Assembly: GCA_046704725.1 (NCBI GenBank)
Contig: JBJKRI010000004.1
Location: 12,175 to 76,174, forward strand
DNA from: Candidatus Woesearchaeota archaeon
Lineage (GTDB): Archaea; Nanobdellota; Nanobdellia; Woesearchaeales; SKIA01
Direction of reading: 5' to 3'
DNA length: 64,000 nt
In this document: piece after piece, positions 8,385 to 61,420 of the stretch
Layout of the letters: every line of letters begins with the position of its first letter
Position numbering within the stretch: the first letter of the stretch is position 1
Translations under genes and position numbers: made by a program
The notes under the pieces: generated by a model
What the model saw: only the letters and a program-made list of their open reading frames with translations
Told to the model about the DNA's origin: nothing
Databases searched by the model: none

Positions 8385-8386
8385 AA

Positions 8387-9447: not shown

Positions 9448-9497
9448 CCTTATAGACGTTTCTTAAATCAAGCGAAGGGTCATAATGGATGAGAAAA

Positions 9498-10308: not shown

Positions 10309-10392
10309 GAATCTTGAAATTGCTCTGTCTGTATTAAAGGATCCGTCTACGTGACCAGTGCTTCATTTATAAGAGCAAAATATTGATTGCGC

Positions 10393-11307
10393 CTATACCT
10401 TATAGAACCAGCCTTTCACTCCATTCGGGTATGGAAGCATATTGTACGGTTCGGTCGTTTCGATAAAATATTTTGCGCTTCCCGTGTTCACATAGACTAT
10501 CATGTGATTCACTGTCTGAGGATCAGTTGGGTTGTTTGCATCCAAGTATACAAGTTCGATGTCCCATCCCGTATTTGCAGCTTTAAGCATGCTCGCCAGC
10601 AGTATTGAAGTGTCTTTACAGTCTCCTCCTCCAGACAACAGTGTCTCCAAAGGATATTTTGGTTTCTCCGTGAACACTGCGGAGTATGTATCCAGTTCGG
10701 TCACTATGTGCCACACATCATGTATAAACTCCTCGTCGCTTGTCCGGTTCAAATATAGGCTGCGCATGACGGTACTGAAGGGAGCTGGATTAACAAAATC
10801 CATCATGTTCTGCACGCGATACGTTTGTCCATTACCTTGCAACAGGAGATATCGCATTCCACTGTTCCGTTTAATGTATCCCTCTCGAAGACTGTTATCA
10901 AGAGAAGAAAACGGTGTCGTCCACGAAATTAGATTGCCTTTATCGTCTTTGAACGCCAACAGCACAGTCTGATTGTGAATTGATATATACGGTGGCGTTA
11001 ATGCTTCCCATTGTAGTTCTGTGTAATTAGATGTCAGCGATATATACCTGTATTCAAGATTGGAGTAGTTGCTCGCGAGCATCTGGTACTCCTGCTGTGA
11101 CGCTTGTAAAGAATTTTGGAGGTTTGTGATCTGCTTGTTTTGTGATGCTAGCTGAGAATTTGACTGTTTTACCAAGTCTGTTGTATGAGTTCTCTCTTTG
11201 CTGATTTCTGTGAGAGACCAGATGACCATCCCTAAAAGAATGAGGATGACTATGACTGCTGTCCACAGCGCAAGACGATACCCTGTAAAAGACCGCCCCC
11301 TTGCCAT
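10393..11307 (-). CDS. Membrane-anchored transglutaminase-like cysteine protease
   Basis: N-terminal TM, coiled coil, then YPLETL..GGDCKDTSILLASML, NH, IETT (Cys-His-acid triad). Confidence 0.82.
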   Translation of the reverse strand: MARGRSFTGYRLALWTAVIVILILLGMVIWSLTEISKERTHTTDLVKQSNSQLASQNKQITNLQNSLQASQQEYQMLASNYSNLEYRYISLTSNYTELQWEALTPPYISIHNQTVLLAFKDDKGNLISWTTPFSSLDNSLREGYIKRNSGMRYLLLQGNGQTYRVQNMMDFVNPAPFSTVMRSLYLNRTSDEEFIHDVWHIVTELDTYSAVFTEKPKYPLETLLSGGGDCKDTSILLASMLKAANTGWDIELVYLDANNPTDPQTVNHMIVYVNTGSAKYFIETTEPYNMLPYPNGVKGWFYKV

Positions 11308-11344
11308 TCCCAAATCTTGATTGGAGAGCTAATAAATGCTTTCT

Positions 11345-11857
11345 CTATTCTTTCGGCTCAGAATTCTCGCCCTTCTCCTTTCGCATCAAGGCGTAGATGC
11401 GGTGTTCCACCGCGTCGCTGTCAGGCACACTCTCCAATACCAACGCTTTCTGGTCGCCGTGCGAGGTGTGCAGTATCAGGTCCGAAGCCCCGGTCATCCG
11501 GTCCCACACCGAGGAGTCGTTCTCCACCTTGGTTATGGATCGGTACGGCAGTGAATGCCGTTTCACGGTGATGAAGCGTCTTTCCCGAACGACGTGAGAC
11601 GTGTAGAACGAGTACCGTGTATTGTGCAGTCCGATCAGGCGGTGCTTGACCATGACGAAACCGCCGAGGAAGCCGACGACGATCACGGAAATCAACAACG
11701 CCGGATGATACACCGACACCATGCCCAATTGCTCAAGCCCGATGAAGATGAAATACACAATGGCAGCAGCGATGCCGAAGCGCCAGAACCAGCGCGCATA
11801 ATGCGGCACAAGGGCGTTCAATAAGGCGGGCTTTATCACGAACTGCGGTTTTTCCAC
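11345..11857 (-). CDS. Membrane protein with bacterial PH (bPH_2-like) domain
   Basis: Two TMs then TRYSFY..HV...RFI...SLPYRSIT.V....WDRMTG.SDLIL.T pattern. Confidence 0.75.
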   Translation of the reverse strand: MEKPQFVIKPALLNALVPHYARWFWRFGIAAAIVYFIFIGLEQLGMVSVYHPALLISVIVVGFLGGFVMVKHRLIGLHNTRYSFYTSHVVRERRFITVKRHSLPYRSITKVENDSSVWDRMTGASDLILHTSHGDQKALVLESVPDSDAVEHRIYALMRKEKGENSEPKE

Positions 11858-11946
11858 GGCAGAAACCCGTAGTGCGGGTATTTATGCGTTCTGCCCGAGC
11901 GCCATCGAGCGAAACGCATATAATGTGTCGCCGCGCCGGTCCGTTG

Positions 11947-13041
11947 ATGCAACCCAACGGACTCACCTATGACGAGCTCGTCAAGCAGCACACGGAGATA
12001 CTCAAGGAGCTGCAGTACAAGAGCGGTCTTTTCGCGGCCAGCAGCAAGGACGTGGGAACAGGCTACGACAAGAGCTGGCTTCGGGACAACTTCTACGAAT
12101 GCCTCGCCTTCGAGGTCATCGACGACTGGGACACCGTCGCCAAGACCTACGACGCGCTCCTCAAGGTCTTCGAGAAGCACGAGAAGAAGATCGACTGGGC
12201 GATCGAGCACAAGCCCCAGGATCAGTTCCAGTACATCCACGCCCGCATCCATCCAGAGACCTTCGAGGAGTTCTGGGAGGAGTGGGGCAACAAGCAGAAC
12301 GACGCGGTGGGAGCCATCCTGTTCCGGATAGGCGAGCTCGAGCGGCACAAGCCGGGTTTCATCATCAAGGACTTCCACCACATGCGCATCACCCAGAAGC
12401 TCGTGGACTATCTGAGCAGCCTGGAGTACTGGCACGACCCGGACAACGGGATCTGGGAGAACGACGAGGAGATACACGCGAGCAGCATCGGCGCGTGCGT
12501 GGCGGGCCTCAAGGCCGTCAACGCGATATCAGGGATCAACGTCGACCCCGAGGTCATCGAGGCGGGGGAATCAATGCTGAATGCCATGCTCCCCAGAGAG
12601 AGCGACAGGAAGTTCGTCGACCTCGCGCTGCTCTCATTGATCTGGCCGTACCACGTAGTGAACAAGGAGCAAGAAGAGGAGATCCTCAAGAACGTCACCT
12701 ACCTGCTGGAACGGGAACGCGGCGTCATCCGGTACAAGAACGACTGGTACTACAACAAGAATCCCGACGGCTACAGCGAGGAGGCGGAATGGACCTTCGG
12801 CCTGGCGTGGCTGGCCATCATCTACGAGCGGCGCGGAGAACAAGAAAAAGCGCAGCACTACATCGACAAGATGCTCGCGACCGTCACAGAGAAAGGCGTT
12901 CCCGAGCTGTACTACAGCCACACGGACAAGCCCAACGAGAACAACCCGCTGGGCTGGAGCGAGAGCCTGTTCATCGTGGCATTGCACGGCATGAACAGGA
13001 AGCTCCTGGCAGGAGAGACCATCCACGAACCGCCCGAATAG
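11947..13041 (+). CDS. Glycoside hydrolase family 15 (glucoamylase/trehalase-like)
   Basis: GYDKSWLRD, QNDAVG, DNGIWE, PELY, PLGWS motifs; start placed at MQPNG. Confidence 0.88.
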   Translation: MQPNGLTYDELVKQHTEILKELQYKSGLFAASSKDVGTGYDKSWLRDNFYECLAFEVIDDWDTVAKTYDALLKVFEKHEKKIDWAIEHKPQDQFQYIHARIHPETFEEFWEEWGNKQNDAVGAILFRIGELERHKPGFIIKDFHHMRITQKLVDYLSSLEYWHDPDNGIWENDEEIHASSIGACVAGLKAVNAISGINVDPEVIEAGESMLNAMLPRESDRKFVDLALLSLIWPYHVVNKEQEEEILKNVTYLLERERGVIRYKNDWYYNKNPDGYSEEAEWTFGLAWLAIIYERRGEQEKAQHYIDKMLATVTEKGVPELYYSHTDKPNENNPLGWSESLFIVALHGMNRKLLAGETIHEPPE

Positions 13042-16902: not shown

Positions 16903-16955
16903 ATCGGGAGGCATTCGCGCCACCGTCGACCTAAAATCGACGTGAGGTGTTGCAC

Positions 16956-17234
16956 ATGCAGATACGACCGATCGGAGAACGCGTCCTCATCCGGACGATA
17001 CAGCAAGAAGAGCGCACCGCCTCGGGCATCTACCTGCCGGAGAGCGCGCGCGAAGGCAAGAAAGAAGGCATCGTCGAAGCCGTGGGAGAAAAAGACGGCA
17101 AGCCCCTCCCGCTCAAGAAAGGAGAGCGGATCCTGTACGGCGGCTACAGCGCCGACGAGTTCGAGATGGACGGCACGACATTCATCATCCTCGAGTACAA
17201 GGACCTGCTCGCGACCATCGGAGGGACCAAATGA
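16956..17234 (+). CDS. groES: Co-chaperonin GroES
   Basis: [18 protein letters not shown] mobile loop, GIVEAVG; ATG at 16956. Confidence 0.95.
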
Positions 17235-18829
17235 GCAAGCAGATCATGTTCGACGAGGGCGCGCGCCAAGCATTGCAGAAAGGCATCGACAAGGTCGCGA
17301 ACGTCGTGAAAGTCACGCTGGGCCCGAGAGGACGCAACGTCATCCTCGACAAGGAAGCGAGCCCGACGGTGACGAACGACGGAGTCACCATCGCCAAGCA
17401 CATCGAACTGCAGGACGGCTTCGAGAACGTCGGCGCGAAACTCATCAAGGAGGTCGCGAGCAAGACGCAGGACCGCGCGGGAGACGGCACGACAACAGCG
17501 ACGGTTCTCGCGCAGGCCATGATCGCGGAGGGCCTCAAGAACATCACCGCCGGAGCGAACCCCATCGAGGTCAAGCGCGGCATCGAAGAGGCGACCAAGC
17601 ACGTCGTCCTCCAGCTGAAAGAGAAGAGCGTTCCCGTCAAGGACAAGGAACGCATCGAGCAGGTCGCAACAGTCAGCGCCAATAACGACGAGGAGATCGG
17701 CACGCTCATCGCCGAAGCGATGGAGAAGGTCGGCTCGTCCGGCGTCATCACCGTCGAGGAAGCGAAGAGCATGGAGACCTCGCTCGAGGTCGTCGAGGGC
17801 ATGCAGTTCGACAAGGGCTACATGAGCCCGTACATGGCGACCGACCAGGAGAAGATGGAGGCCGTCTACGACGACCCGTACATCCTGGTGACCGACAAGA
17901 AGATCAGCACGATGAAAGAGATCGTGCCCGTCCTTGAACTATCCGCCCAGCAGGGAAAGCCGTTGTACATCATCGCCGACGACGTGGACGGAGAGGCGCT
18001 GACCACGCTGGTCCTCAACATCCTGCGCGGCGCACTCAAGGTCGTCGCCGTGAAGGCGCCGGGCTTCGGCGACGAGCGGAAAGCCTTGCTGCAAGACATC
18101 GCCGTCCTCACGGGCGCGACGGTCATCAGCGAACAGCTCGGCGGAAAGCTCGAGAGCGTGACGGCGCACGACCTCGGACGCGCCGGGCGCGTCAAGAGCA
18201 GCAAGGAGAGCACGGTGATCATCGAGGGCAAGGGCGACGCCAAATCATTGAAGGAACGCATCGGCATGCTCAAGAACCAGATGAAGAGCGAGGAGAAGGA
18301 GTACAAGCGCGACGAGCTGCAAAAGCGCCTGGCCAAGCTCTCCGGCGGTGTCGCGGTCATCAACGTGGGCGCAGCGACGGAGACCGAGCTCAAGGAGAAG
18401 AAGATGCGCATCGACGACGCGCTCCACGCGACGAAGGCCGCCGTGGAGGAAGGAGTCGTTCCCGGAGGGGGCATCACGCTCTTCCGCGCCGCAGCGACCC
18501 TCGAAAAGAAGAAGGGCGAGCGCGGCGTGGGCATCGCGATCGTGCGGAAAGCCTTGGAAGAGCCTCTGAGACAGATCGCGCACAACGCGGGCGTCGAGCC
18601 CGCGGAAGTCGTCGCCAAGCTGCGCGAGCACAAGGACGCGTACGGCTACAACGCACGGACAGGGGTCTATGAGGACCTGTACAAGGCCGGCGTCATAGAC
18701 CCCACGAAGGTCGTTCGCAACGCCTTGCAGAGCGCGTCGAGCATCGCGGCGATGCTCCTCACCACGGAGAGCGTCGTGACGGATTTCGACGACGAGAAGG
18801 ACAAGGGCAGCCCCGCGATCATCATCTGA
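17231..18829 (+). CDS. groEL: Group I chaperonin GroEL
   Basis: [39 protein letters not shown]; no GGM tail. Confidence 0.98.
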
Positions 18830-33300: not shown

Positions 33301-33979
33301 CGGGCGCACGGAGTTGCTGAGAATGCCTGACACCGGCCGGATCGACGGCCTGGATATCGAGATAGCCGCTGGGCGAGACGGGAGCGAGGCGCGGTCGAGA
33401 ACAGTGACTGGCAGCGATGCACGTCTGATTGTCAAACCCGCCGAGCAGACCGCAGATCATCTGCGCACGAACGGTAAGAATGTCTGGTACGGTGACGTGC
33501 GCAATCCGCTCACCGGGCAGAACCGCCTCGATTTCGAGATCTTTCCCCCCAAGGTTCCTGTGAGAGGCAATTTCCGCATCGCCGTCGGTGTGTCCGCGAT
33601 ATCCGGGAATGAGCGAAAGGACCTCACGAATCGACAATTCAGCGCGTTGCACTTGAAGCTGTTGGCCCGCAGGAAGAAGGGAGAACCCATGACCAGTGAG
33701 ATATCCTTCACAGCGGGCAGGGGAAGGGATGAAGGACGCTGGGTCGCGAACAATCAAGCAGTGTTCCAAAGCGCGGAAAGCATCAATGCAAGCCTGTTGC
33801 TGGATCTTTCTGACGGCGAGTCAGCGTTCGATATCGTGCCGGGCGCCGAGGCCTTCGTATTCGTCGTCACAGTGCATATAGGGACGCGGAACACGGTGAG
33901 CGAACTAGCCGGTGAGAAACTGATCGGGTATGCGGTCCTCACTGTCCGGAAGCCCGCCACGCGTCAAGAGGGCTCTTGA
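30374..33979 (+). CDS. 1201-aa multi-TM protein with tandem Ig-like / carboxypeptidase-regulatory-like beta domains
   Basis: About 5 N-terminal TMs, Gly-rich linker, repeated ISGHVT / VVGRVL...VPDAEV...TTTDREGRFSF modules; ATGA overlap with upstream gene. Confidence 0.85.
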   Translation: MSPSFLAYPLGLLNPAQVYLTAPYLWDAIIYFMLFLGLATFVYTQKGTYGKKRGKPVAIAIAMALTFSLSVWEYTSGWYLGQTRFAILPLIILLGLFFLLFYRMLTQMFNMKAHCAAAISYYLTYAGAGGMFDGAISSGLSQYPSIGMVLDILILTAFITLIVCVIGLFPKSTPTGTGDDGGGTSSGAGTMPDGGRGGNEPGGLSPGKPGKGGLEVKLKEPKNKAKISVDDKLPVKAKISGGTGNYVWRVITQKDGGDAEEQKRGKGENVKVSVGPFPPGKYRVYVIVQDGQSEANANARFRVEYKDSQLGVIEGTGVYATTDEPVQDRTIFYLVDEYFDQLTGKDGKPIRTTGRVDDDECTFVFKDIPIPKEGINVWVQGYTPSGENGRSESAVNLRRDDRKKSVRVRFGVSPNRVLPQFEQPRENAELLAGETSDVKLYFHGPAGATAMYSISLVDRNSHEVVNVVQNASVRILGTAVERRHAMTHPKAPGAYTLTLTYVQGERRGSIKREVRVVGSTEGTLRVSVKPEQEQYETLDVVKFQLHVDGLQGVKREWRAIRGENNKKITDWIALEGDTGTFDGTLRLRHGLNLTGKQRIRILVRDGYSVGSDEFTVEILSSEPQRAVTISGHVTDSGAPSEGRYVQVLDERGAELKRSDETRITPNNPDLSGAYSLQLGTIPDGPLIIQVVGAPQTARPLQIAEGANEIHEDFDLSGNTTPTPDSNVTVFRGLVLHVEPNGRIVGPAAGGAVRLSFDGTLIAQTRIADNGSYAVRDTHPKTGVYVLDADTARGHKTLRIRINRPGRVSENLLVPVDANTGQQFIVEGKAVYDDGRGITEVLPRNSTAQLIKDGRQRGIQGVGPDGSFRVADDSPVRGDYLLVIETPFGERESRTVRYDPDSPSIEKNIKVERVQTVVVGRVLSGGHGVPDAEVSVLTPRGEPVDWNTTTDREGRFSFDGVPRLGEFYLQAITAEGTGRTELLRMPDTGRIDGLDIEIAAGRDGSEARSRTVTGSDARLIVKPAEQTADHLRTNGKNVWYGDVRNPLTGQNRLDFEIFPPKVPVRGNFRIAVGVSAISGNERKDLTNRQFSALHLKLLARRKKGEPMTSEISFTAGRGRDEGRWVANNQAVFQSAESINASLLLDLSDGESAFDIVPGAEAFVFVVTVHIGTRNTVSELAGEKLIGYAVLTVRKPATRQEGS

Positions 33980-34742
33980 CGTCCTTGATCGTGTCGCGCG
34001 TAACGTGCGTGTAGATCTGCGTGGTCTGCAGGTTCGCGTGCCCGAGCAGTTCTTGGATGATTCGAACGTCCGTGCCCCCCTCGAGCAGGTGCGTGGCGAA
34101 CGAGTGGCGGAGCACGTGCGGAGTCACGTGTTTCGCGATGCCCGCGCGCTCGGAGGCATCCGCGACGATCGCTTGCACGTTGCGCGTGGTCATTGTGCCG
34201 TCGCCGAAGATGAAACCCTCGCCTCGCAGCTGTTCGCGCAGGCTGTCGGGGATGACGGTGATGCGGTCCTTACCCCCCTTTCCTTGTCGTACGTGCAAGG
34301 TACCGTCCGAGGAGATGTCGTCATAGCGGAGCTTGACGAGCTCGGAGACCCGCAGCCCGCAGGCGTAGAGCAACTCGATCATGAGACGGGACTGCTTCGT
34401 GGGAGCCGCCTGCACCAGTGAAGCGACCTCTTCTTTCGTCAGATGGACAGGATGCTTCTGCGCGACCTTCGGAGCGCGGATGCCGGTGAAACCGCGCTCG
34501 AGGACCTCATTGTAGTAGAAGAGCAATGCGCTGCGCGCGAGATTCACCGTGCGCGATGCCTTGCCATCGTCAATGAGCGTCGCGAGGTACGCTTTGATAT
34601 CGTCCTTGGTGACATTCTCAGCATCCTTGCCCAGCCGCTTGAGGAACTGCGTGTTGTAGCGCAGATACGCCTTCTTGGTGTGCGGGGACAATCCGCGGAG
34701 CGTCATCTCCGTCTGCAAACGCTTCATTTTATGCGAATACAC
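33939..34742 (-). CDS. xerA: Tyrosine recombinase, XerA/XerD-like
   Basis: SAM-like N-terminus, GLRVSEL, GKGGKDR, HVLRHSFATH, LGH...TTQIY (full R-K-H-R-H-Y set). Confidence 0.92.
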   Translation of the reverse strand: MYSHKMKRLQTEMTLRGLSPHTKKAYLRYNTQFLKRLGKDAENVTKDDIKAYLATLIDDGKASRTVNLARSALLFYYNEVLERGFTGIRAPKVAQKHPVHLTKEEVASLVQAAPTKQSRLMIELLYACGLRVSELVKLRYDDISSDGTLHVRQGKGGKDRITVIPDSLREQLRGEGFIFGDGTMTTRNVQAIVADASERAGIAKHVTPHVLRHSFATHLLEGGTDVRIIQELLGHANLQTTQIYTHVTRDTIKDVKSPLDAWRASGQ

Positions 34743-35341: not shown

Positions 35342-35752
35342 CGCTGTTTGCTGCAACTGCTTTGGTGCGTAGCGCGAAGTCCGTTCAGTAGGTGTGGATG
35401 CGCGGTCGCGCAACGCTGCGTATCCTTCGTGGATTCTTGCTGAGAATCTGCCTCACACTGATTCCGTTGGGTTGCGTGACCTCTCTAAAGCGTTTTCGAT
35501 AATCATTACTGAATAGGGGTATATCTCCATGCTATTTAAATATGCATTCTTTGATGTGTTTAATGGGCTGTATTATGATTATAATATATGCTTATAAATA
35601 ATAGACGTTGTATTGTGAATTGTATGTCCAATATGTTAGTACTATTAAATTATGTGTTTCGAGGATGTCTGAAATATGTCGTTTTGTCGTAAAACTTTTT
35701 GTAGAGGATGGAATGCTGCGGCTTTATAAAGTGCTCCGTGCAAATACGCCCC

Positions 35753-36370
35753 ATGAAATCGAGCAGACGCGCAGTGACCTGGGCGGTACTCAGTACGATT
35801 GTCGCGGGAAATGCCCTCGCAGGCTGCAGGATCGCCACACCGAGCAAGAAGACCCCTGAAGAGCTTGTCCCGGCCGCCACACAAGTGGAGCATGAAATGG
35901 AAGAGGGCAGATTCGCCGATGCCGGCGAGAAATTCGTGAGCTTTGCACAGGCGTGCCCTGGCACCGTGGACGCGCAGCAGGTCGGCGAGGTCTGCGCGAG
36001 TCTCGAATTGATCAAGAAGTACGCCGATGCCATGATTGCCAACAAGGGGCTTGAAAGCTGGAAAGCTGGGCTGTCCGAGCTGGACCATGAGAATATGGCG
36101 TTTCTCACTGAAGGGCTCAAGCACTACGCCAAGCTCATGAACGGATCGGATTATGATCTCCGAAAGCGGATGCTCTATGGGTTGCTGCCTACCCTGAACA
36201 AGGTACGCGACGGTCTTGAGCTGACTGTGCAGGCGAAGAACTCCTCCGTCTCCAAGCCGAGGGGAATTCTCGCTCGAGCGACAGGTTTGTCGCCCGACTG
36301 GGTATTGAAGGATGCGGAGAAGACGCGGAACGCGTATCTGAAGGCGCTTTCCCAGGCACTGCAGCCATAG
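35753..36370 (+). CDS. Predicted lipoprotein, helical
   Basis: MKSSRRAVTWAVLSTIVAGNALAGC: basic N-region, hydrophobic core, LAGC lipobox. Confidence 0.72.
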   Translation: MKSSRRAVTWAVLSTIVAGNALAGCRIATPSKKTPEELVPAATQVEHEMEEGRFADAGEKFVSFAQACPGTVDAQQVGEVCASLELIKKYADAMIANKGLESWKAGLSELDHENMAFLTEGLKHYAKLMNGSDYDLRKRMLYGLLPTLNKVRDGLELTVQAKNSSVSKPRGILARATGLSPDWVLKDAEKTRNAYLKALSQALQP

Positions 36371-44404: not shown

Positions 44405-47400
44405 CTATTCCTGGAGGGCGATGCCGTAGCGCAACGCGCGTTTCCGCACGCGCTCCTCGGCCGTGTGCGGCGTCGTGAGCTTGTCGACGAAGGAGACGGC
44501 CGTCACGCCGCAGACCGTCTTGAGCTCGTCCTCGCGGCCGCTCACGACGTCCTGGAGGTCCGTGGCGAGCTGGATGCTGACGCGGTCGGTCTTGTCCATG
44601 CCTGCCTCCTTGCGCAGGCGCTGTATGCGCCTGACGAGCTCGCGGAAAAAGCCTTCCTTTAGCAGCTCTTCGTCCTGCGCTGTGGAGACGAGCACCTTGA
44701 TGCCCTGCGACTCCGCGAACGCCCAACCGTCCGGCGCGTGCGCGGTCACTGACAGGAACTCCGGGCCCAAGGTCTCTTCCAGTACGGTCACCTTCCCATC
44801 CTTGGCGAACTGCGCGCCGAGCCGGTCGGCGTCCTTCTTGATGGCCGTCGCGAGCTCGGCGGTACGGGCCCCGAAGGACTTGCCGAGCGCCTTGAAATCG
44901 GGATCCACCGTGAAGGACAACGGGAGGGATTCCTCGAAGCGGATCTCCTTGACGTTCGCTTGTTGGGCGACGAGGGAAGCGAGCTCATCCGGCAGCACAG
45001 CAACGCCACTGACCCGCGCGGTGCGGAGCGGCCAGCGCAGACCCGTCTGTGCCTTGTCACGCGCCGCCAGGATGACGCTGAGCACGTCCATGGCCTCATG
45101 CATACCGCCTTCGAGCGCGGTATCGATCCGTTTTTCGTCCGCAGCGGGAAGGCCGCTCAAGTGCACGCTCTGCTCCTGCAATCCGAGCGGACCGCGGAGG
45201 TTCCGCCAGATGGCCTCGGTGATGAACGGCGAGACCGAAGCGAGCAGACGGACAGCGATGAGATATGATTCGGTCAAAGCGCTGCGCACGGCCGCACGCT
45301 CGTCATCGGTGCCCTGCGCGACCTTGGGGCGCACCAGCTGGATGTATGTCCGGCTGATATCGTCGAGCAGGGATTCGATCGCTTCGGGGATGCGGTCGAG
45401 GCGATAGGCGTCCAGGAGGTCCGCGACCTGTTTCGCGGTGCTGTGGGCGCGCGACAGGATGTACCGCTCCTCGACACCCAACGAAGGCTTCCCCCGCGCG
45501 TCGGCGTACAGGTCGAGCAGGTACTTGTGGATGTTCCAATAGACGAGCAAGCTCTTGCGCTTGTTCTCGCAATCATCGAGATTATAGTTGAGGTCCTGGC
45601 CGGCGCGTGTGCCGCTGATGAGGTACAAGCGCACGGCGTCAGCGCCGTACTTGCCGATGACCTCCTCCGGCAGGATGTAGTTGCCCTCGCTCTTGGACAT
45701 CTTGCGTCCCTGGGCGTCCTGTATCATGCCGTGCATGTACACGTTCTTGAAGGGCAGCTTGTCGAAGGCGACGGTCGATGCGACCATGAGCAGGTTGAAC
45801 CAGCCGCGTATCTGGTCGTTGCCCTCGATGATGAAATCCGCGGGGAAGAACGTATCGAAGAGATCCTTGCGTGCGGGGAAGTGCAGCGACGCGAACGACG
45901 CGACACCCGCATCAACCCAGACGTCGATCACGTCGGGCAAGCGACGAAACGTCTTCTTGCCCTTCTTGATGATGACATCATCGATCCACGGCTTGTGCAG
46001 CTCCTTCACCGGATGCCCGCAGAGCCTTTCGAGCTCTTCCTTGGAGCCCACGACGATGACATCGTCCGGGTCCTCCTCGTTGCGCCAGACAGGGAAAGGC
46101 GTCCCCCAGAAGCGTTGCTTGGTCAGGCTGTTGTCGCGCAGGTTCTCCAGCCAGCTGTTGAAGGCGTTGAAACCGGCCTCGGGAACCCAATGGGCCTTCT
46201 TGTTCTGCGCGACCATACGCTCCTTGAGGTCATCTACATGCAAGAACCACTGCCGCGTCGTCTTATAGACGATGGGCTGCTTGGAGCGCTCGGCGAACGG
46301 ATAATCGTGGACGTAGGGCTCGATCGCGACGAGCATGCCCTTCGCCTCGATCTGCTCGGTGAAAAAAGCGTCCTCGAAACGCGCGCGCTTGCCCGAGAAG
46401 ATGTCGACGTCCTCAGGGTACCGGCCCCGCTCGTCGAGGAGGTTCCAGGCCGGGACGTCCTCGCGCACGCCCACCTCGTAATCCTCGGGGCCGCAGCCGG
46501 GAGCGGCGTGGACAAGACCGGTGCCGCTGTCGGTCGTCACGTACTCGACGGAAGCGACGACAGTATGGACATTGGGATGGTCCTTCTTGAGGGACGCGTA
46601 GTCGAAGGTGTCCGCGAAGAAATGCGTGTATTCCGCGCCGACGAGCTCCTTGCCAGGAGTCTTCCCGATGATTGTGCCCTTCTTTCCCGCGCCGGCCAGC
46701 ACGGCGTCCACGCGCTGCTCGGCAATGATCCAAACCTCATCATCCACCTTGACGTGCGCGTACGAGACGTCGGGATTCACCATGATCATGAGATTGAAGG
46801 GGATCGTCCACGGAGTGGTCGTCCAGACGATGAAGAACTCGTCCTTCGCGTCCAGGCGGGGAAACTTCACGTAGATGCTCTTGTCCTCGACCTCCTGGTA
46901 ATAGAGCTCGTGCTTGGCGAGGGCGGTCTCGTGCACGGGATCCCAGTACATGGGACGCAAGCCCTCATAGAGCCGTCCGTTCTCGTGGGCATGCTTGATG
47001 AGCCACCACACAGCGCCGATCCACTCGTCGCTGATCGTCTGGTAAGGATCGTCGAAATCGAGCCAGACACCGAGGCGCGCGAAGTCCTCGTTCATGGCGT
47101 GCATGCGCGATACGGTCAGGTCGCGGCAGTAGGTCGCGAAACGCTCGACGCCGTACGAGACGATATCCTCCTTGTTCTTGAGGCCGAGCTCGCGCATAGC
47201 GGCGTGCTCGTTGGGAAGGCCGTGCATGTCGTAGCCCGCGCGGTCCCAGACCCTACGGCCCTGCATGCGTCGCAACCGCACGACCAGGTCCTTCATGCTC
47301 TTGTTCCACGCCGTGCCGATATGGACCTTGCCGCTCGTGTAGGGAGGGCCGTCGAGGAAATAGAACGGCTCTCCCGAAGCCTTCTTGTTCGCCGCCGCAT

Positions 47401-47473
47401 GAAGACCGTTCTTCTTCCAGAAGTCCAGCACAGCGGGCTCGAGCACGGTGAAATCCGGGTCGGGATACTCCAT
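44405..47473 (-). CDS. ileS: Isoleucine--tRNA ligase
   Basis: DGPPYTSGKVHIG, WTTTPWT, GTGLVH.APG, KMSKS; start MEYPDP. Confidence 0.97.
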   Translation of the reverse strand: MEYPDPDFTVLEPAVLDFWKKNGLHAAANKKASGEPFYFLDGPPYTSGKVHIGTAWNKSMKDLVVRLRRMQGRRVWDRAGYDMHGLPNEHAAMRELGLKNKEDIVSYGVERFATYCRDLTVSRMHAMNEDFARLGVWLDFDDPYQTISDEWIGAVWWLIKHAHENGRLYEGLRPMYWDPVHETALAKHELYYQEVEDKSIYVKFPRLDAKDEFFIVWTTTPWTIPFNLMIMVNPDVSYAHVKVDDEVWIIAEQRVDAVLAGAGKKGTIIGKTPGKELVGAEYTHFFADTFDYASLKKDHPNVHTVVASVEYVTTDSGTGLVHAAPGCGPEDYEVGVREDVPAWNLLDERGRYPEDVDIFSGKRARFEDAFFTEQIEAKGMLVAIEPYVHDYPFAERSKQPIVYKTTRQWFLHVDDLKERMVAQNKKAHWVPEAGFNAFNSWLENLRDNSLTKQRFWGTPFPVWRNEEDPDDVIVVGSKEELERLCGHPVKELHKPWIDDVIIKKGKKTFRRLPDVIDVWVDAGVASFASLHFPARKDLFDTFFPADFIIEGNDQIRGWFNLLMVASTVAFDKLPFKNVYMHGMIQDAQGRKMSKSEGNYILPEEVIGKYGADAVRLYLISGTRAGQDLNYNLDDCENKRKSLLVYWNIHKYLLDLYADARGKPSLGVEERYILSRAHSTAKQVADLLDAYRLDRIPEAIESLLDDISRTYIQLVRPKVAQGTDDERAAVRSALTESYLIAVRLLASVSPFITEAIWRNLRGPLGLQEQSVHLSGLPAADEKRIDTALEGGMHEAMDVLSVILAARDKAQTGLRWPLRTARVSGVAVLPDELASLVAQQANVKEIRFEESLPLSFTVDPDFKALGKSFGARTAELATAIKKDADRLGAQFAKDGKVTVLEETLGPEFLSVTAHAPDGWAFAESQGIKVLVSTAQDEELLKEGFFRELVRRIQRLRKEAGMDKTDRVSIQLATDLQDVVSGREDELKTVCGVTAVSFVDKLTTPHTAEERVRKRALRYGIALQE

Positions 47474-47524: not shown

Positions 47525-47821
47525 ATGCCAGTAGAGACTATCCGCGGATGCCCCGTCTGCGGCGGGACCGTCTCCGGGAACGGAGTCCTCGGCTACCTGT
47601 GCGGGCACTGCTCGCTCGTATTCAGCAAGAAGCACTTCTCTGGCCATCCGAGCAGAAAAGAGCTGCTGAGCGCGTTCGAGCGGACCGTGCGATACGTGCG
47701 CGCCGATGACAGCAATACCTATCACGTGCCTATGTGCAAATACGCCAAGCGAATCGACACGCAGCTGGAAGTGACGGACACGACCGGATTGCGTGCCTGC
47801 CGATGCGTGCGAAAGCCATAA
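47525..47821 (+). CDS. Zinc ribbon plus Ada-like metal-binding domain protein
   Basis: CPVC/CGHC, then SNTYHVPMC..AKRI...GLRACRC. Confidence 0.7.
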   Translation: MPVETIRGCPVCGGTVSGNGVLGYLCGHCSLVFSKKHFSGHPSRKELLSAFERTVRYVRADDSNTYHVPMCKYAKRIDTQLEVTDTTGLRACRCVRKP

Positions 47822-47845: not shown

Positions 47846-48802
47846 GTGCTCACCGACACGATAGACCCGATCATCACGACGATACCTGCCTTCACGCTCG
47901 CGAGCGCGTGGATACTCTTCGGGGGCCTTCTCATCGCGCTCATCGGCGGAGCGCTCGCCTGGCGCCGGCACAAGAAACCGCAGGACGCCACCACCCTCTG
48001 GATCGGGGCCGTCATCGCGCTCATCGGCGTGTTCTTGTACCTGACGGGAAGAAGCAGCGTCGCGATCGGACCCATCAGCCTGCGCTGGTACGGCGTGGTC
48101 TACGTCCTCGGATTCATTGGCGGCTACTGGGCCTTCAGAAAGCTCGCAGGACTCACCGCGGACGAGGCCGACAGCCTCACGCTGTGGGCGATGATCGGAC
48201 TGCTCATCGGGGCGCGCACGTTCTTCTTCGCTTTCTACAGGCCGGACCTGTTCAGTCCCGCAGAGTTCTTCGCGGTCTGGCACGGGGGGATGAGCTTCCA
48301 CGGAGCGCTCCTGGGCATCACCGTGGCGGGCTGGCTGTGGGCGCGGCACTACAAGAAACGGTTCTGGCGGATAGCAGATGTGGGTGCGGTGCTCGTCTCA
48401 TTCTTCCTCGCGCTCGGACGCCTCGCGAACTTCGCGAACAGCGAGATCGTGGGAACCGTGACGAACGTTCCGTGGTGCGTGCACTTCCCGCACGCGGCCC
48501 CGCCGGGGAACGTCGGCTGCAGGCATCCAGTGCAATTGTACGCGGCGTTCAAGGACCTCTTGACAGGCTCGGGGATGCTATTGCTCTACAAAAAGGGCGG
48601 CTTCGCCGACGGGTTCCTGTTCTGGCTGTTCGCGGCGATCTACGGCGTGCTGCGCTTTGTCATCAACATCTGGCGTGCGGACCCCGTCATTGCGTTCGGC
48701 TGGCTGAAGATGGGGCAGATCCTATCGGTCGCGCTCCTGCTGATAGCGGTCCCCGTGCTGCTCAAGCGATACAGGAAAGACCTGCAGAAGATATTTAAGT
48801 GA
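47846..48802 (+). CDS. lgt: Prolipoprotein diacylglyceryl transferase
   Basis: RWYG, GGMSFHG, GRLANFANSEIVG, RHPVQLY, YG..RF. Confidence 0.93.
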   Translation: MLTDTIDPIITTIPAFTLASAWILFGGLLIALIGGALAWRRHKKPQDATTLWIGAVIALIGVFLYLTGRSSVAIGPISLRWYGVVYVLGFIGGYWAFRKLAGLTADEADSLTLWAMIGLLIGARTFFFAFYRPDLFSPAEFFAVWHGGMSFHGALLGITVAGWLWARHYKKRFWRIADVGAVLVSFFLALGRLANFANSEIVGTVTNVPWCVHFPHAAPPGNVGCRHPVQLYAAFKDLLTGSGMLLLYKKGGFADGFLFWLFAAIYGVLRFVINIWRADPVIAFGWLKMGQILSVALLLIAVPVLLKRYRKDLQKIFK

Positions 48803-48818: not shown

Positions 48819-49457
48819 ATGATGGAACCGCTGGTCATAGTCAACTTCAAGACGTACAAGAAAGCTACAGGACAAGCCGCGGTGTCATTGACCCAGGCAT
48901 GCGCAGAATCAGGAGCGCAAGTCGCTGTCCAGGCCGTCGACATCCAGGCGTGCGCCGCGACAGGAGCGCAGGTCTGGGCGCAGCACGTGGATTCGGCAGG
49001 GTACGGATCGCACACCGGAGCGGTCATTGTAGAAGCTGTCAAGGCCGCAGGAGCGATCGGCACATTGCTCAACCACAGCGAGCATCGTCTCGACGACCCA
49101 ACCATCGGCGAGACGGTGAAGCGATGCAAAGAGCTCGGCCTGAAGACCGTCGTGTGCGCGGCGAGCGTGGAGGAGGCAGAACGTTACAAGGCCTTCGCGC
49201 CAGACTATATCGCTGTCGAGATCCCTGCACTCATCGGCGGGGATGTGAGCATCATGAACGCCGAGCCGGGCATCGTCAAGCGCGCGGTTGAACAGCTCGG
49301 AAGCAACGTGCTCGTGGGAGCCGGCGTCTCCTCGGGGGATGACCTCAAGACCGCTATGGACGAGGGCGCTGCGGGCGTCCTGTTGGCGAGCGCGATCGCG
49401 AAGAAGGCGGACGACCCCAAGGCCGCGCTGCGCGAGCTCTACTCCAAACTCACGTAG
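48819..49457 (+). CDS. tpiA: Triosephosphate isomerase (archaeal short type)
   Basis: NFKTY, AQHVD, LLNHSE, AVE.P.LIG, GVLLAS. Confidence 0.96.
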   Translation: MMEPLVIVNFKTYKKATGQAAVSLTQACAESGAQVAVQAVDIQACAATGAQVWAQHVDSAGYGSHTGAVIVEAVKAAGAIGTLLNHSEHRLDDPTIGETVKRCKELGLKTVVCAASVEEAERYKAFAPDYIAVEIPALIGGDVSIMNAEPGIVKRAVEQLGSNVLVGAGVSSGDDLKTAMDEGAAGVLLASAIAKKADDPKAALRELYSKLT

Positions 49458-49978
49458 AGGTGCTGGACCCCGTAGACCGTCGAGGTCCCTTCATCGACCG
49501 TGACCGTGTAGATGAACTGCTTGGCATCGATGTTCGTCGGAGGCGTGATGAGCACTGATTCGTACTTCGTCTGGCCCGGCTTGATATCGAGCGTGTCGGT
49601 GAAGTACTGTATCTGTCCGTTGCCCTCCTGTTTCGGATTGGCAGCAATAACATTGATCTTGAAACTGTTCATAGAAGCCCCGGTGTTCTTGATGCCGATG
49701 GCGAACATCGCTGTCTTCTGCGAGGACCCCCCGCACAGGGGGCTTCCCGTCATCTTCGCGGTCTTGCTGTTGTCCGCGACGACGACGCGGCCGCCGCCCG
49801 CGAGGAGACGGTCGATCTGGTTCTGCGTCTGGGAATCGACGGTGTTCGAGTAATGCACTGCCGCGCACAACGCCTTGTAGGTGAGCGTGAAGGCCATACC
49901 GAGGATGACAATCGCGACGAGGAGGATGACGACGGTGCTGGCCGCGAGCTCGATGCCGCGCTTATTTAGTGATCTCAT
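49439..49978 (-). CDS. Class III signal-peptide (type IV pilin-like) protein
   Basis: NKRG/IELAASTVVILLVAIVILG then beta-rich domain. Confidence 0.8.
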   Translation of the reverse strand: MRSLNKRGIELAASTVVILLVAIVILGMAFTLTYKALCAAVHYSNTVDSQTQNQIDRLLAGGGRVVVADNSKTAKMTGSPLCGGSSQKTAMFAIGIKNTGASMNSFKINVIAANPKQEGNGQIQYFTDTLDIKPGQTKYESVLITPPTNIDAKQFIYTVTVDEGTSTVYGVQHLYVSLE

Positions 49979-50186
49979 ACTCCCGGATGAGGATGCTCAT
50001 GAAGAGCAGCAGGACGAAGGCACCGCCGACCATGATCCAAAAGCCGTAGGTGAGGTTGCTGTTGTGGATGATGATGTACAAGCCGTAGAGCAGGATAATA
50101 AGGCCCGCCCACAAGAACTTGTCCAATACGAGCTTCAGGATATCGAACTCCTCTTGCCGCGTGAGTTTCTTCTTGTTCTTCGCCAT
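49962..50186 (-). CDS. Small two-TM conserved membrane protein
   Basis: MAKNKKKLTRQEEFDILKLVLDKFLW..., IREYE; TAATG overlap with upstream gene. Confidence 0.75.
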   Translation of the reverse strand: MAKNKKKLTRQEEFDILKLVLDKFLWAGLIILLYGLYIIIHNSNLTYGFWIMVGGAFVLLLFMSILIREYEITK

Positions 50187-50728
50187 TATTGGTTCACCGT
50201 CAGGCTGAATTCCGCAGGAGATATCTCGCTGATCGCCTGTGGAGTGGAACCACCGCCTGTGACGCCCATCGCCACGATCCGGCACAAGTAGGTCGAACTC
50301 ACGGCGTTCTTGTTGATCATGAACACGTACGTGAAGACGTTCGAATCGCCCGGCTTGAGCGTCTTGCTGAAGTACTGTTGGCTCTTATCGGCGATGGGAT
50401 TCGTACCGCTGGCAGGGTCGTTCTTGCATTCAATCGCCGGATACGCTCCAGTGATAGTTGTCGAGGGCGTGTTGTCGAGGATTCCAATCTTCATACCGAT
50501 GTAATCGCCGCGCGAGCCCGATTCCGCGGTGCGCGACAGCGTGATGGGAGTTCCCTGCGAGGGCGCCGGCGGATTGGGCTCGTTCGAATCGATCGAGTTG
50601 AAGAACTTCTGCTCGACGGAATTGAACGCGCGCGTCACAAGACCGATGATGAGGCCGAGCATGATGACCGCGATGATGAGCACGACGATCGCGTTGGTCG
50701 AGATGGATAATGAAGCGCGTCGTTGCAT
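50186..50728 (-). CDS. Class III signal-peptide (type IV pilin-like) protein
   Basis: QRRA/SLSISTNAIVVLIIAVIMLG then Ig-like beta domain with a Cys pair. Confidence 0.8.
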   Translation of the reverse strand: MQRRASLSISTNAIVVLIIAVIMLGLIIGLVTRAFNSVEQKFFNSIDSNEPNPPAPSQGTPITLSRTAESGSRGDYIGMKIGILDNTPSTTITGAYPAIECKNDPASGTNPIADKSQQYFSKTLKPGDSNVFTYVFMINKNAVSSTYLCRIVAMGVTGGGSTPQAISEISPAEFSLTVNQ

Positions 50729-55949: not shown

Positions 55950-56489
55950 TTACGCGTTGCTCTTGCGCGCGAAGAAGAACTGGAGCGCGAATATCGCGGC
56001 GAAGACGGACAAGGAAAGCAGCGGGATGGTGAAAAAGCCGAACGCGTTGAGGTACGGGCTCGCGCAGGACGCGGTGGCGTCGCACGGGGCGGAGGCCTCG
56101 AGGAAGGCGAGGTGCTGCAAGGCATAGTGATATATGGCTACAAGTCCGCCAATCACCGTCATCCAGAGCGCCAGGAGACGCTGCGACTTCCGCTGGTACA
56201 GCGCGAGCGCGAACACCAATACGAGCGGGTACATGAAGATGCGCTGGAACCAACAGAGCACGCAAGGCGTGAGATTGGCGATGTTGGACAGGTACAGGCT
56301 TCCGAGGGTCGCTGCAGCGGCCAAGAACAGGCTCCACCGGTCGGCGGTACGTCGCAAGTGCTTCTCCAGCGCCTTCCAGAAGGATGGCTTGGTCCATGCG
56401 GCCACGCCGACGATCACCAGCGCGGCCCACAATGCGAGCGCCGCAGCAGAAGCGATTTCAAAGATGATAGGCAGGTAGGCCAGCGTCAT
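55950..56489 (-). CDS. dsbB: Disulfide bond formation protein B (BdbC-like)
   Basis: ATLGSLY.S, PCVLCWFQRIFMYP, second Cys pair, TIP.LSL. Confidence 0.92.
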   Translation of the reverse strand: MTLAYLPIIFEIASAAALALWAALVIVGVAAWTKPSFWKALEKHLRRTADRWSLFLAAAATLGSLYLSNIANLTPCVLCWFQRIFMYPLVLVFALALYQRKSQRLLALWMTVIGGLVAIYHYALQHLAFLEASAPCDATASCASPYLNAFGFFTIPLLSLSVFAAIFALQFFFARKSNA

Positions 56490-59074: not shown

Positions 59075-59659
59075 TTACGGGTACAGGTACACGCGTTGTG
59101 TACTGATCACGTCGGGCGTGTTGAACTCCACGAGCGTGGGCGTACCGATCTTCGGGATGAAGTTCAGACGCATGTGCTCGTCCTGGCCTATGGAGCGGGG
59201 CATAGCGAACTGCAACCGCACAACATCTCCACGTTGGAGGTTGCCGTCCAAGTGGTTGGTGCCGTTGATAAGGTACGTGATGCCGAAGGTTCCCGTCGTC
59301 GCGTTGGCTACGGTCGCGAACGATGAGTTGCCGCTGTAAGTCAGGGTAGTCGTGGAGTTGTCCGTGTCCACCGTGAACGTCACTTCATCAAGCTTCATGG
59401 GATCAGAGCCGGGGCTCAACTTCATCTCCAGCGAGAAATTCTCAAGAGTCTGGTCCGTGCCGTCGACGGCAGAGACCTCGATGACTTTCGCATTCGTGGA
59501 TATCTCGCCTTTCGATTGCTGACCGGTCGACAGGGCCTTCTGCTGAAGACTGCCCGCAGTCTGGAGCAATACTCCTGCAGCCACCGCAGCGACCAACAGC
59601 ATGGCGATGAAGATGATGAGCGTGCCTACGCCCATTTCTGCTTTCTTGTTCCACTTCAT
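59075..59659 (-). CDS. flaB: Archaellin (FlaB/ArlB family)
   Basis: KKA/EMGVGTLIIFIAMLLVAAVAAGVLLQT..SLQQKA..TG archaellin N-terminus. Confidence 0.9.
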   Translation of the reverse strand: MKWNKKAEMGVGTLIIFIAMLLVAAVAAGVLLQTAGSLQQKALSTGQQSKGEISTNAKVIEVSAVDGTDQTLENFSLEMKLSPGSDPMKLDEVTFTVDTDNSTTTLTYSGNSSFATVANATTGTFGITYLINGTNHLDGNLQRGDVVRLQFAMPRSIGQDEHMRLNFIPKIGTPTLVEFNTPDVISTQRVYLYP

Positions 59660-59824
59660 AAGGCGTTCACCTATATACCGTATACTGTGCTACGGTTTTG
59701 TATACTAGGAGGTCTTGAGTATAAAAATGTTTGCCCCCCCTTATATTGCTCAATCCAAGCGAGAGAGCGCCCGCTGCGGGCGAAATACGCCACCTATTTA
59801 AAGAAGCGCACGTTGCGGACCGCT

Positions 59825-61420
59825 ATGGAGCCGAGCGGAATCCAACCCATCTTCATCCTGCCAGAGAGCAGCCAACGCAGCACCGGGAAGAACGCGCAAC
59901 GAAACAACATCCTGGCTGCGCGCATGGTCGCCGAGACCGTGCGGACGACCCTCGGACCCAAAGGCATGGACAAGATGCTCGTGGACAGCGCGGGAGAGGT
60001 CACCGTCACCAACGACGGCGTCACCATACTCGAGGAGATGGACATCGCGCACCCGGCGGCGAAGATGATCGTCGAGGTAGCCCGCACGCAAGAGAACGAG
60101 GTCGGCGACGGAACGACCACCGCTGTAGTGCTCGCCGGAGAGCTGCTCACGAACGCAGAACGGCTGCTCGACGATAAGATCCATCCGACAGTCATCATCA
60201 AGGGCTATCGTCTCGCCGAAGCGGAAGCGCAGCGGGCCCTCGAGAAGCTTTCGCAAGGGGTGTCGCAGAAAGATACCTCGCTACTGCGCAAGATCGCGGC
60301 AACAGCCATGACAGGCAAGGGGGCCGAGTCGCAGAAAGAGCATCTCGCAGAGCTCGCGGTGCGCGCGGTGCGCGCGGTCGCAACAGAGGACGGGATCGAC
60401 CTGGACAGCATCAAGATTATGCACAAGGTCGGCGGGTCCATACAAGACAGCGAGCTCATCGCCGGCATCGTGCTCGACAAGGAACGCGTGCACCCGTCCA
60501 TGCCGGACTACATCGAGCGCGCACGCATCCTCTTGCTAGACAGCGCGCTCGAGCTCAAGGAGACGGAGCTCGACGCGAAGATCAGCATCACAGACCCGAC
60601 ACAGATGCAATCCTATCTGGACATGGAGGAACGCATGCTGGAGAGCATGGTCTCGCGAGTGCTCGCGGCGGGCGCGAACGTGGTCGTCTGCCAAAAAGGC
60701 GTTGACGACCTTGCGGCCTACCAGCTCGCCAAGCAAGGCGTGTTCGTCGTGCGACGCGTCGCGAAGAGCGACATGGAGAAACTCTCTAAAGCGACGGGGG
60801 CGGACATCCTCAGCGACCTCAAGGACGCACGCGCACAGCATCTCGGACGCGCCGGGAGCGTGCAGCAAGCGAAGGTCGGTGACGAACAGATGATCTTCAT
60901 CGAGGACTGCCGCAAGGCCAAGGCAGTGTCCTTGCTCATCCGCGGCGGGACGAGCCACGTGGTGGACGAAGTCAGGCGCGCGGTGACAGACGCGGTCGGT
61001 GACCTGCGCGCAGCATTGCTCTCCGAACGTGCGGTCCCGGGAGCGGGAGCCACGGAGATCGAGCTGGCCAAACGACTGTCGCGATACGCCCGCAGCCTGT
61101 CCGGACGGGAGCAGCTCGCCGTGGAAGCGTACGCGCAGGCCATGGAGGTCATCCCGCGCACGCTCGCCGAGAACGCGGGACTCGACCCCATAGATGTGGT
61201 GGCGGACCTGAAGAGCGGCCACAGCAACGACAAGGAGGCAGGGATCGACGTCTTCTCCGGAAAGGTCATCAATGCGTGGCGCAAGGGAGTCATCGAGCCG
61301 TTGCGCATCAAGACCCAAGCCATCAGCAGCGCGACCGACGTGGCGTGCATGCTCCTGCGCATCGACGACGTGATAACGAACGGACAAACGGAGCAGCCCG
61401 TGCAGCCGCAGCTGGACTGA
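59825..61420 (+). CDS. thsA: Thermosome (group II chaperonin)
   Basis: [38 protein letters not shown]. Confidence 0.97.

Follow-up and report, generated by a model that had tools for sequence, protein, structure and literature searches.

Does an archaeon carry a working bacterial-type prolipoprotein diacylglyceryl transferase (Lgt), and what should be made of a pair of extra hydrophobic helices near the start of such a protein? Both questions are raised by one open reading frame (ORF) in a stretch of 64,000 nucleotides (hereafter the window) from the Candidatus Woesearchaeota archaeon genome GCA_046704725.1 (contig JBJKRI010000004.1, positions 12,175-76,174). In the part drawn on here, a 2018 review (PMC6098224) states that no archaeal Lgt or Lsp homologues have been identified, and the corresponding part of Hong et al. 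2025 (PMC12462473) likewise describes archaeal Lgt and Lsp homologues as not identified. In the full-text literature searched (subscription journals and supplements lay outside its scope) we found no paper that treats Lgt or Lsp as present in Woesearchaeota, Nanoarchaeota or DPANN archaea, and public databases already annotate woesearchaeal proteins as prolipoprotein diacylglyceryl transferase. Our analysis confirmed what had been seen in the sequence: the gene belongs, as an ordinary member, to a large archaeal Lgt clade that has drawn little attention, and it carries a unique in-frame insertion encoding a transmembrane hairpin.

Results

A bacterial-type Lgt in an archaeal genome

According to the ORF list and its translation, the reading frame at 47846..48802 (+) comprises 318 codons and a TGA stop, and starts with GTG. 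The gene and the parts of it that concern catalysis are as follows.

47846..48802 (+), lgt coding sequence, the sole Lgt match in the genome (ORF list, PF01790, TIGR00544, alignment to 5azb, Foldseek)
48068..48799 (+), canonical Lgt body with the second strand of arm-1, seven core helices and a short head domain (Pfam residues 72-305; predicted local distance difference test, pLDDT, of 85-98 from residue 80)
48416..48454 (+), Lgt signature motif GRLANFANSEIVG, residues 191-203, corresponding to E. coli G142-G154 (98-row alignment; Mao et al. 2016)
48476..48520 (+), Cys211...Cys225 pair of the extracytoplasmic head region (column counts)
48665..48667 (+), codon of Asn274, the site of E. coli Glu243 (alignment to 5azb; column of the 98 rows)

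The product passed the curated cut-offs of both PF01790, the Pfam LGT family (E = 2.8e-57; 194.3 bits against a cut-off of 24.9; residues 72-305), and TIGR00544, the NCBI equivalog model (165.9 bits against 118.9), and the E. coli Lgt structure 5azb aligned to residues 73-314 with E = 2e-30. An AlphaFold2 model computed from an 18-sequence alignment (mean pLDDT 81.7, and 85-98 from residue 80 onward) has the Lgt fold, with seven core helices and the strands of the arm-1 hairpin (72-74 and 77-79) ahead of the first transmembrane helix. When this model was compared with the PDB by Foldseek, 5azb was the only significant match (E = 1.9e-12, TM-score 0.66), the next one having an E value of 0.29. 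The Lgt motifs picked out in an earlier, sequence-only reading of the window are all there: RWYG at residues 80-83, GGMSFHG at 147-153, GRLANFANSEIVG at 191-203, RHPVQLY at 226-232 and YGVLRF at 266-271. For the signature motif and the roles of the residues we follow the account of Mao et al. 2016 (PMC4728403).

The source genome consists of 1,183,702 bases in 8 contigs, with a completeness of 99.69% and a contamination of 0.6%, and a single Lgt match was found in it. The contig that bears lgt is 150 kb long. When 55 ORFs of the window were compared with Pfam, archaeal markers came up, namely Rpb4, Spt5-NGN, DUF655, a thermosome and the ribosomal proteins S17e, L35Ae, L31e, S19e and L15e; the L31e gene lies about 2 kb from lgt. 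The best named homologue of the protein, with 60% identity, also belongs to a Candidatus Woesearchaeota archaeon (P0002). It is therefore confirmed that the ORF is a bacterial-type Lgt carried by an archaeal genome.

Lgt and LspA across the lineage

The protein used as a query found matches in 38 of 41 genomes of the order (the source genome and 40 relatives), including all four relatives of the same genus. On the scale of the phylum, sampled as 301 evenly drawn genomes that are each at least 90% complete, PF01790 scored above its cut-off in 264 genomes, or in 262 of 299 when the unpublished G261 and G262 are set aside; the 37 genomes of this sample with no Lgt match are 11 of the same order and 26 from elsewhere in the class. 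LspA (PF01252) was present in 40 of the 41 genomes of the order set, and the lone genome with no match, G013, is 99% complete. The sequence-only reading had proposed a bacterial-type Lgt in an archaeal genome, which the archaeal markers of the contig support, but its accompanying statement that Lgt is generally absent from archaea does not hold here.

The phylogeny proposed in the same reading was computed from 98 Lgt proteins, which are the subject protein, 18 relatives and 79 named loci obtained by a pattern scan of GTDB genomes; L038, which is truncated, and L014, which the extraction motif did not capture, were left out. The archaeal Lgts formed one clade apart from the bacterial ones, with all 23 archaeal rows on one side of a branch, all 75 bacterial rows on the other, and a value of 98 in the Shimodaira-Hasegawa-like approximate likelihood ratio test (SH-aLRT). 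By path length the nearest bacteria were Thermodesulfobacteriota and Nitrospirota, in a bacterial sample biased by its selection as the 80 best tblastn matches and in a tree whose root is unplaced; because of this bias and the unrooted tree, we name no bacterial donor from the nearest rows.

The gene order ileS(-)/lgt(+)/tpiA(+)/pilin-like(-) recurs at each of the four same-genus loci and once in another genus. The single archaeal clade, the near-universal occurrence and the shared synteny together indicate, at the level of sequence comparison, that the lineage has long possessed its Lgt and passed it on vertically, the gene not being a recent import.

Partners of Lgt in the lipoprotein pathway

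A search for lspA had also been suggested, and it led to a signal peptidase II gene in the same genome: the one LspA scored 101.9 bits with PF01252 and 91.5 bits with the equivalog TIGR00077, whose cut-off is 73.95. As for Lnt, no match to PF20154 (LNT_N) was found in the genome, the CN_hydrolase domain not having been searched. Lnt is optional and does not occur in all bacteria. Candidate substrates were scanned for among 1080 ORFs obtained by crude calling based on the GC content of third codon positions (GC3). A PROSITE-style lipobox rule selected 29 N-termini, and a strict pattern with [LVI][ASTVI][GAS]C at its end selected 16, most of which read LLAG/C or LLAA/C (the slash stands before the Cys). 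When D, E, K, N or R took the place of Cys, the strict pattern gave 1-2 matches each, and Cys was about 5.5 times the pooled rest per residue frequency; lipobox-bearing substrates, with Cys at +1, are thus enriched in the proteome. Two of these lipobox proteins are encoded in the window itself. The one at 1425-2657 (+) has Big_9, cadherin-like and PKD domains and a signal peptide ending in LALAA/C, and the one at 35708-36370 (+; placed at about 35738 in the lipobox scan) has no Pfam family and a signal peptide that ends in NALAG/C.

An N-terminal insertion private to one genome

The part of the gene that sets it apart from its relatives lies at the 5' end.

47846..47884 (+), orthologous N-terminus, codons 1-13, with I-D-P at positions 6-8 (homologue comparison, BLOSUM62)
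47885..48067 (+), 61-codon in-frame insertion P14..I74 with two hydrophobic helices, its boundaries uncertain by a few codons (absence in the same genus, motif spacing, AlphaFold2 model, GC3)
47931..47948 (+), first copy of an 18-nt direct repeat, coding for ..IALIG. in helix 1 (repeat search, spacing 81 nt)
48012..48029 (+), second copy of the 18-nt direct repeat, coding for ..IALIG. in helix 2 (repeat search)

Of 22 archaeal homologues, 20 begin with a Met that stands exactly 13 residues ahead of the G-P of the arm-1 hairpin, and all 22 have Pro at position 8. We compared the N-terminus with these homologues by BLOSUM62 scores, used in place of an empirical p-value against a genome-wide null. 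Residues 1-13 reached a mean score of 19.9 (positions 2-13) and an identity of 3.3/12, residues 62-74 reached a mean of -0.1 and an identity of 1.3/12, and the N-terminal segment outscored residues 62-74 in every one of the 22 comparisons. The canonical G-P...RWYG restarts at residue 75, after 61 intervening residues. Because residues 1-13 are orthologous and the G-P stands at residue 75, the site at which the 61 codons were inserted lies after the first strand region and ahead of the G-P turn. The sequence-only reading had described an N-terminal stretch split by about 60 amino acids with two hydrophobic helices, and this description proved accurate, the model placing the helices at residues 16-41 and 45-66 (pLDDT 34-62). 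The length of the insertion is a multiple of three, there is no in-frame stop in it, and its GC3 in the lgt frame is 0.89, compared with 0.835 +/- 0.08 for in-frame gene windows; off-frame windows average 0.61 and 0.43, and just 0.5% and 0% of them reach 0.85.

The spacing between the P of the DP motif and the W of WYG makes the exception plain. It is 73 in the subject protein and 12 in 106 of the 111 scorable proteins among 120 listed homologues, the five others being the subject protein, one misfire of the pattern and three proteins with spacings of 13, 14 and 18. Among the tree rows the spacing is 12 in 86 of 89 that could be scored, the rest being two at 16 and the subject protein; rows that were unscorable by the pattern look canonical or are without an N-terminus in the extraction. 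The insertion is missing from the four same-genus Lgts and from the other 119 listed homologues, and a search of residues 1-75 against a set of 5.8 billion proteins, with 717 candidates, was matched by the subject protein alone. Judged from these comparisons, the insertion is private to one genome. The sequence-only reading had held that its proposal would fail if such an insertion were common among ordinary bacterial Lgt proteins, and this is not so, the spacing being unique. Just three other sequences, P0013 and the Cloacimonadota proteins L041 and L103, have additional residues at this tip, 4-6 each; the arm-1 tip thus tolerates such additions.

In E. coli Lgt, strand beta-1 of the outward head domain comes from the N-terminus, the amphipathic arm-1 consists of beta-2 and beta-3, and arms 1 and 2 border the front cleft, which is the proposed substrate entrance (Mao et al. 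2016, PMC4728403). The loop between the two inserted helices, WRRHKKPQD, has four positive charges, and residues 1-15 have two Asp only. Given these charges, an out-in-out helix pair with a cytoplasmic positive loop would agree with the positive-inside rule and would leave the topology of the core unchanged.

We also looked for an origin of the inserted codons. The exact 18-nt repeat occurs in two copies only in the 1.18-Mb genome, both of them inside the insertion. No donor was found in the source genome, where blastn and tblastn searches with the opening 225 nt or 75 aa returned only the locus itself and weak hydrophobic matches, and a search for the 61-aa insertion in five close genomes, run without a positive control, gave nothing at E <= 1. 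An internal duplication was rejected. The best local match of the insertion to the rest of Lgt, the helix hairpin that follows the HG motif, scored 46, but 45 of 2000 shuffles reached this score and the reversed insertion reached 42; the two halves of the insertion scored 30 against each other, which was matched by 193 of 2000 shuffles. The top ESM Atlas cluster for residues 1-75, an unnamed family of 91 aa from Planctomycetota, had a score of 0.90 and is no more than a lead, as shuffles reach at least 0.9 in 4-10 of 100 cases.

It may be asked whether the inserted codons belong to the enzyme at all. If translation started at the in-frame GTG at 48029, the product would be a 257-aa Lgt, the 183 nt ahead of it would serve as a leader or code for a separate product, and no nine-helix enzyme would exist. 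This would agree with the lengths of the homologues (245-291 aa) and with the MAFFT alignment, which set the Met of all 16 unextended homologues at residues 60-62, where V-F stands against M-F; no Shine-Dalgarno-like motif is evident ahead of either candidate start. However, the shorter product would lose the [D/N]-P motif, whose Pro is at position 8 throughout the archaeal homologues, and would gain as its N-terminus the segment that scored so poorly in the BLOSUM62 comparison. The upstream codons have a GC3 of coding type, and the open frame has its first start codon, GTG, at 47846, precisely at the canonical distance from the DP motif. We thus consider the short form alone improbable, and the long and short forms could coexist.

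Catalytic residues and the cysteine pair

The sequence-only reading had noticed that the Glu of the RF..EF.R stretch is replaced by Asn, and the alignment to 5azb bore this out, as Asn274 occupies the position of E. coli E243. Glu fills this column in 75 of 75 bacterial rows, while the 23 archaeal rows have Asn in nine, Asp in seven, Glu in four and Thr in three cases, which amounts to a residue other than Glu in 19/23 archaeal and 0/75 bacterial rows. In E. coli, the E243A, E243Q and E243R mutants fail complementation, as do R239 and R246 mutants, and E243 takes part in a hydrogen-bond network beside R239, the residue in contact with the diacylglycerol at its C3 hydroxyl (Mao et al. 2016, PMC4728403). 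The buried R239-E243-R246 network is not found in full in the woesearchaeal protein, in which R270 and R277 are kept and the middle residue is Asn274.

The other key residues are kept. Equivalents of Y26, R143, N146, E151, G154, R239 and R246 are present in all 23 archaeal rows and that of H103 in 22 of them, and R192, N195, E200 and G203 are invariant over the 98 rows (23 archaeal and 75 bacterial). The HGGL-type motif, which opens TM3, reads H152-G153-A154-L155, with Ala replacing the second Gly; all 75 bacterial rows have its His, as do 22 of the 23 archaeal ones. The equivalent of Tyr26, a residue of TM1, is Y82, and the Tyr26 column holds Tyr wherever a residue is present. As Glu is lost in 19 of 23 archaeal rows in which the other key residues are kept, the replacement of Glu243 is a clade trait at a mechanistically sensitive spot and not the defect of one copy. 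Asn274 leaves the homology standing, since this position is a conserved residue and not a criterion of the curated models, although the mechanism or the donor may differ from that in E. coli.

Cys occurs at each of the two head columns in 20 of 23 archaeal rows versus 4 of 75 bacterial rows, and where listed per row the two occur together. A DsbB-family ORF lies 7 kb from lgt, at 55953-56489 (-). The archaeal cysteine pair and this nearby ORF hint at extracytoplasmic disulfide formation in the archaeon.

One of the 23 archaeal rows, L034, is titled uncultured Methanosarcinales archaeon, and its Lgt stands inside the DPANN clade, retains Glu at the E243 column and lacks the cysteine pair; it may reflect a mis-binned contig or a transfer.

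The loss of Glu243 could also mean that the enzyme is degenerating or has been repurposed, its Lgt activity abolished or changed to another acceptor or donor by this loss and by an insertion near the cleft. The failure of E243A, E243Q and E243R to complement in E. coli (Mao et al. 2016, PMC4728403) speaks for this, as does the position of the insertion at arm-1, which borders the proposed substrate entrance. The loss is nevertheless common to 19 of 23 archaeal Lgts, and LspA occurs in most of the 19 genomes behind those rows that were searched for it, so that the loss is compatible with a maintained pathway. Moreover, the genome has no second Lgt yet retains LspA and 16 strict lipobox proteins, and the remaining key residues are all kept. 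Degeneration or a change of function is therefore very unlikely in our view; because the single lgt is retained alongside lspA and the substrates, we infer that the nine-helix Lgt works.

Lipid-synthesis genes

A check of the lipid-synthesis genes, likewise proposed from the sequence, gave a divided answer. On the one hand, the core-lipid genes were not found, family profile searches of this genome giving no match for PcrB/GGGPS, UbiA, Fe-ADH_2 (the family that holds glycerol-1-phosphate dehydrogenase), PlsY or PlsC. On the other hand, CarS-like, PgsA-like and PssA-like enzymes were found. The CarS-like ORF scored 89 bits, and its best NCBIfam model was CDP-2,3-bis-(O-geranylgeranyl)-sn-glycerol synthase (CDP-archaeol synthase), with 120 bits against a cut-off of 148; the PgsA-like ORF scored 95 bits against 109 and the PssA ORF 112 bits against 107, and a third CDP-alcohol transferase is present as the fourth head-group enzyme. 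Judged from these genes, the cell seems capable of activating a lipid core and attaching head groups, among them phosphoglycerol, yet incapable of producing the core itself, and because the genes for core synthesis were not found, the cores would be acquired from outside.

The 41 genomes of the order (the source genome and the relatives G001-G040) were surveyed for the same genes. PlsC-type acyltransferases were found in 25 of 40 relatives (26 of 41 in the whole-set count), some as tandem pairs, and CarS in 21 of 41 genomes (20 of 40 relatives). UbiA was found in 19 of 41 genomes, in 18 of them over the cut-off, and these include all four same-genus relatives and not the source genome; the PcrB/GGGPS matches in 5 of 41 genomes were all weak and partial, with 3 barely over the cut-off. 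Since CarS is of the archaeal type, we lean slightly toward ether rather than ester donor cores, at chances only a little better than even. A tie between the Glu243 state and the lipid genes was rejected as evidence and stands as a lead only: the three Glu-keeping relatives among the genomes searched for lipid genes all have PlsC and no CarS, yet five genomes with N, D or T are alike in this, and the genomes are few and related.

The sequence-only reading had taken the insertion as a possible adaptation to archaeal ether lipids, and this part of it was not sustained. The insertion is private to a single genome and therefore not a general lipid adaptation, and it is the Glu243 change that is clade-wide instead. 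The place to look for lipid adaptation is thus the clade-wide replacement of Glu243, not the insertion.

Gene neighbourhood

The genes next to lgt are as follows.

44405..47473 (-), ileS, divergent and conserved neighbour (Pfam tRNA-synt_1; synteny in L003-L006 and L009)
47525..47821 (+), zinc-ribbon-like ORF of 98 codons whose stop lies 24 nt before the lgt start (translation; no Pfam family)
48819..49457 (+), tpiA, conserved downstream neighbour (Pfam TIM; synteny)

That the 183 nt might not exist in the living population, or the gene not be archaeal, owing to an assembly or binning artefact is suggested by the occurrence of the insertion in one assembly only, but this is extremely unlikely, given an insertion whose length is a multiple of three, with no in-frame stop, coding GC3 and a topologically neutral helix pair, a sole repeat of just 18 nt (shorter than the usual word lengths of assemblers), a 150-kb contig with the ileS-lgt-tpiA order of the relatives and archaeal ribosomal protein genes 2 kb away, and a genome contamination of 0.6%.

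The zinc-ribbon-like ORF has a homologue directly upstream of lgt in L009, from another genus of the same family (E = 4.9e-9), and no homologue of it was found in the four same-genus lgt loci. Two paralogous ORFs of about 180 aa, at 49439-49978 (-) and 50186-50728 (-), have an N-terminal hydrophobic segment of the archaeal-pilin type and no Pfam family, and the former is the conserved neighbour of tpiA in the relatives. Further from lgt, bacterial-type DnaJ and GroES/GroEL genes (219-1337, 16947-18826 and 59516-61417) share the contig with the thermosome, in agreement with the account of Woesearchaeota in the part of Castelle et al. 2021 used here. The GC content drops to 0.48-0.56 at 8001-12000 of the window versus about 0.61 elsewhere, and a tyrosine recombinase (Phage_integrase) is encoded at 33942-34742 (-); the low-GC stretch and the recombinase may be signs of mobile DNA.

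Discussion

The explanation that accounts best for these results is that the gene encodes the cell's single working prolipoprotein (diacyl)glyceryl transferase, that it belongs to an old clade near-universal in its DPANN phylum, and that it carries a private, tolerated insertion; we consider this joint reading quite likely. By analogy with the E. coli enzyme, Lgt would be embedded in the membrane, its active site turned to the outside, take a glycerophospholipid with a phosphoglycerol head and move the lipid-glyceryl moiety onto the lipobox Cys, after which LspA would cleave the signal peptide. The donor lipid is probably finished by the CarS-like, PgsA-like and related head-group enzymes of the cell on cores obtained externally. 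In this genome only, 61 codons would have entered the arm-1 hairpin at its tip, in frame and with the topology of the seven core helices kept, so that the insertion may be regarded as a tolerated, lineage-private addition beside the front cleft and not as a lipid adaptation.

Several points weigh against this explanation. With Asn in place of Glu243, the hydrogen-bond network around R239 must differ from that of E. coli, and the function ascribed to the protein is derived from its sequence. The CarS-like and PgsA-like ORFs fall under the NCBI curated cut-offs, negative family searches of one genome, even one that is 99.7% complete, are no proof of absence, and the lipid genes of the relatives form a mosaic, so gene content does not settle ether versus ester. 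The insertion is known from a single assembly, and its helices are modelled with low confidence.

Compared with E. coli Lgt (5AZB/5AZC), the woesearchaeal protein shares the signature motif, the HGxL motif and the equivalents of Y26, R143, N146, E151, G154, R239 and R246, and its genome likewise has the partner LspA and lipobox substrates. It differs in the two additional helices at the tip of the arm-1 hairpin, in the change of Glu243 to Asn, and in a head region of about half the length (residues 200-228 versus E151-P197) that bears the Cys pair; in its archaeal host the searches detected neither PlsY/PlsC nor enzymes for ether cores, and no Lnt N-terminal domain either. With the Woesearchaeota and Nanoarchaeota Lgts of public databases (for example P0002) it has in common the clade, the within-genus neighbourhood, the Glu243 replacement and the Cys pair, whereas the others that we examined keep the canonical 13 residues before the G-P and the 61-residue insertion belongs to the subject protein only. 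Lipidation in the archaeon Haloferax volcanii has been assigned to AliA/AliB (arCOG02177), with a thioether-linked archaeol as the anchor, and the similarity between Ali and Lgt is described as marginal (HHpred probability 29%), with two arginines in common (Hong et al. 2025, PMC12462473). The proposed task is equal, namely to join an archaeal membrane lipid to the lipobox Cys through a thioether, but the families are different, as the woesearchaeal protein is a full Lgt by both Pfam and TIGRFAM.

The presence of both bacterial-type enzymes, near-universally and as one old clade, in a DPANN phylum contrasts with the literature statements that archaea lack them. As the core-lipid genes are patchy or were not found in these Lgt-bearing archaea, the question arises whether Lgt acts here on ether lipids or whether these archaea contain ester lipids. 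A concrete residue for a swap is the Glu that is essential in E. coli and lost across the clade. The insertion is of narrower interest, but it shows that the tip of the arm-1 hairpin can accept a whole transmembrane hairpin, in the sole lgt copy of a genome in which the remainder of the pathway is retained. We tentatively speculate, while thinking it somewhat likelier to be wrong than right, that the archaeal Lgt clade uses archaetidylglycerol and transfers an ether-linked glyceryl of opposite stereochemistry to the lipobox Cys, and that the Glu243 replacement, perhaps with the Cys pair, is the mark of a bacterial-derived enzyme that crossed the lipid divide; a bolder addition is that the private helix pair changes which lipid or signal peptide enters the front cleft. 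If the enzyme does act on ether lipids, there would be two archaeal systems of protein lipidation, AliA/AliB in Euryarchaeota and Lgt/LspA in the DPANN phylum.

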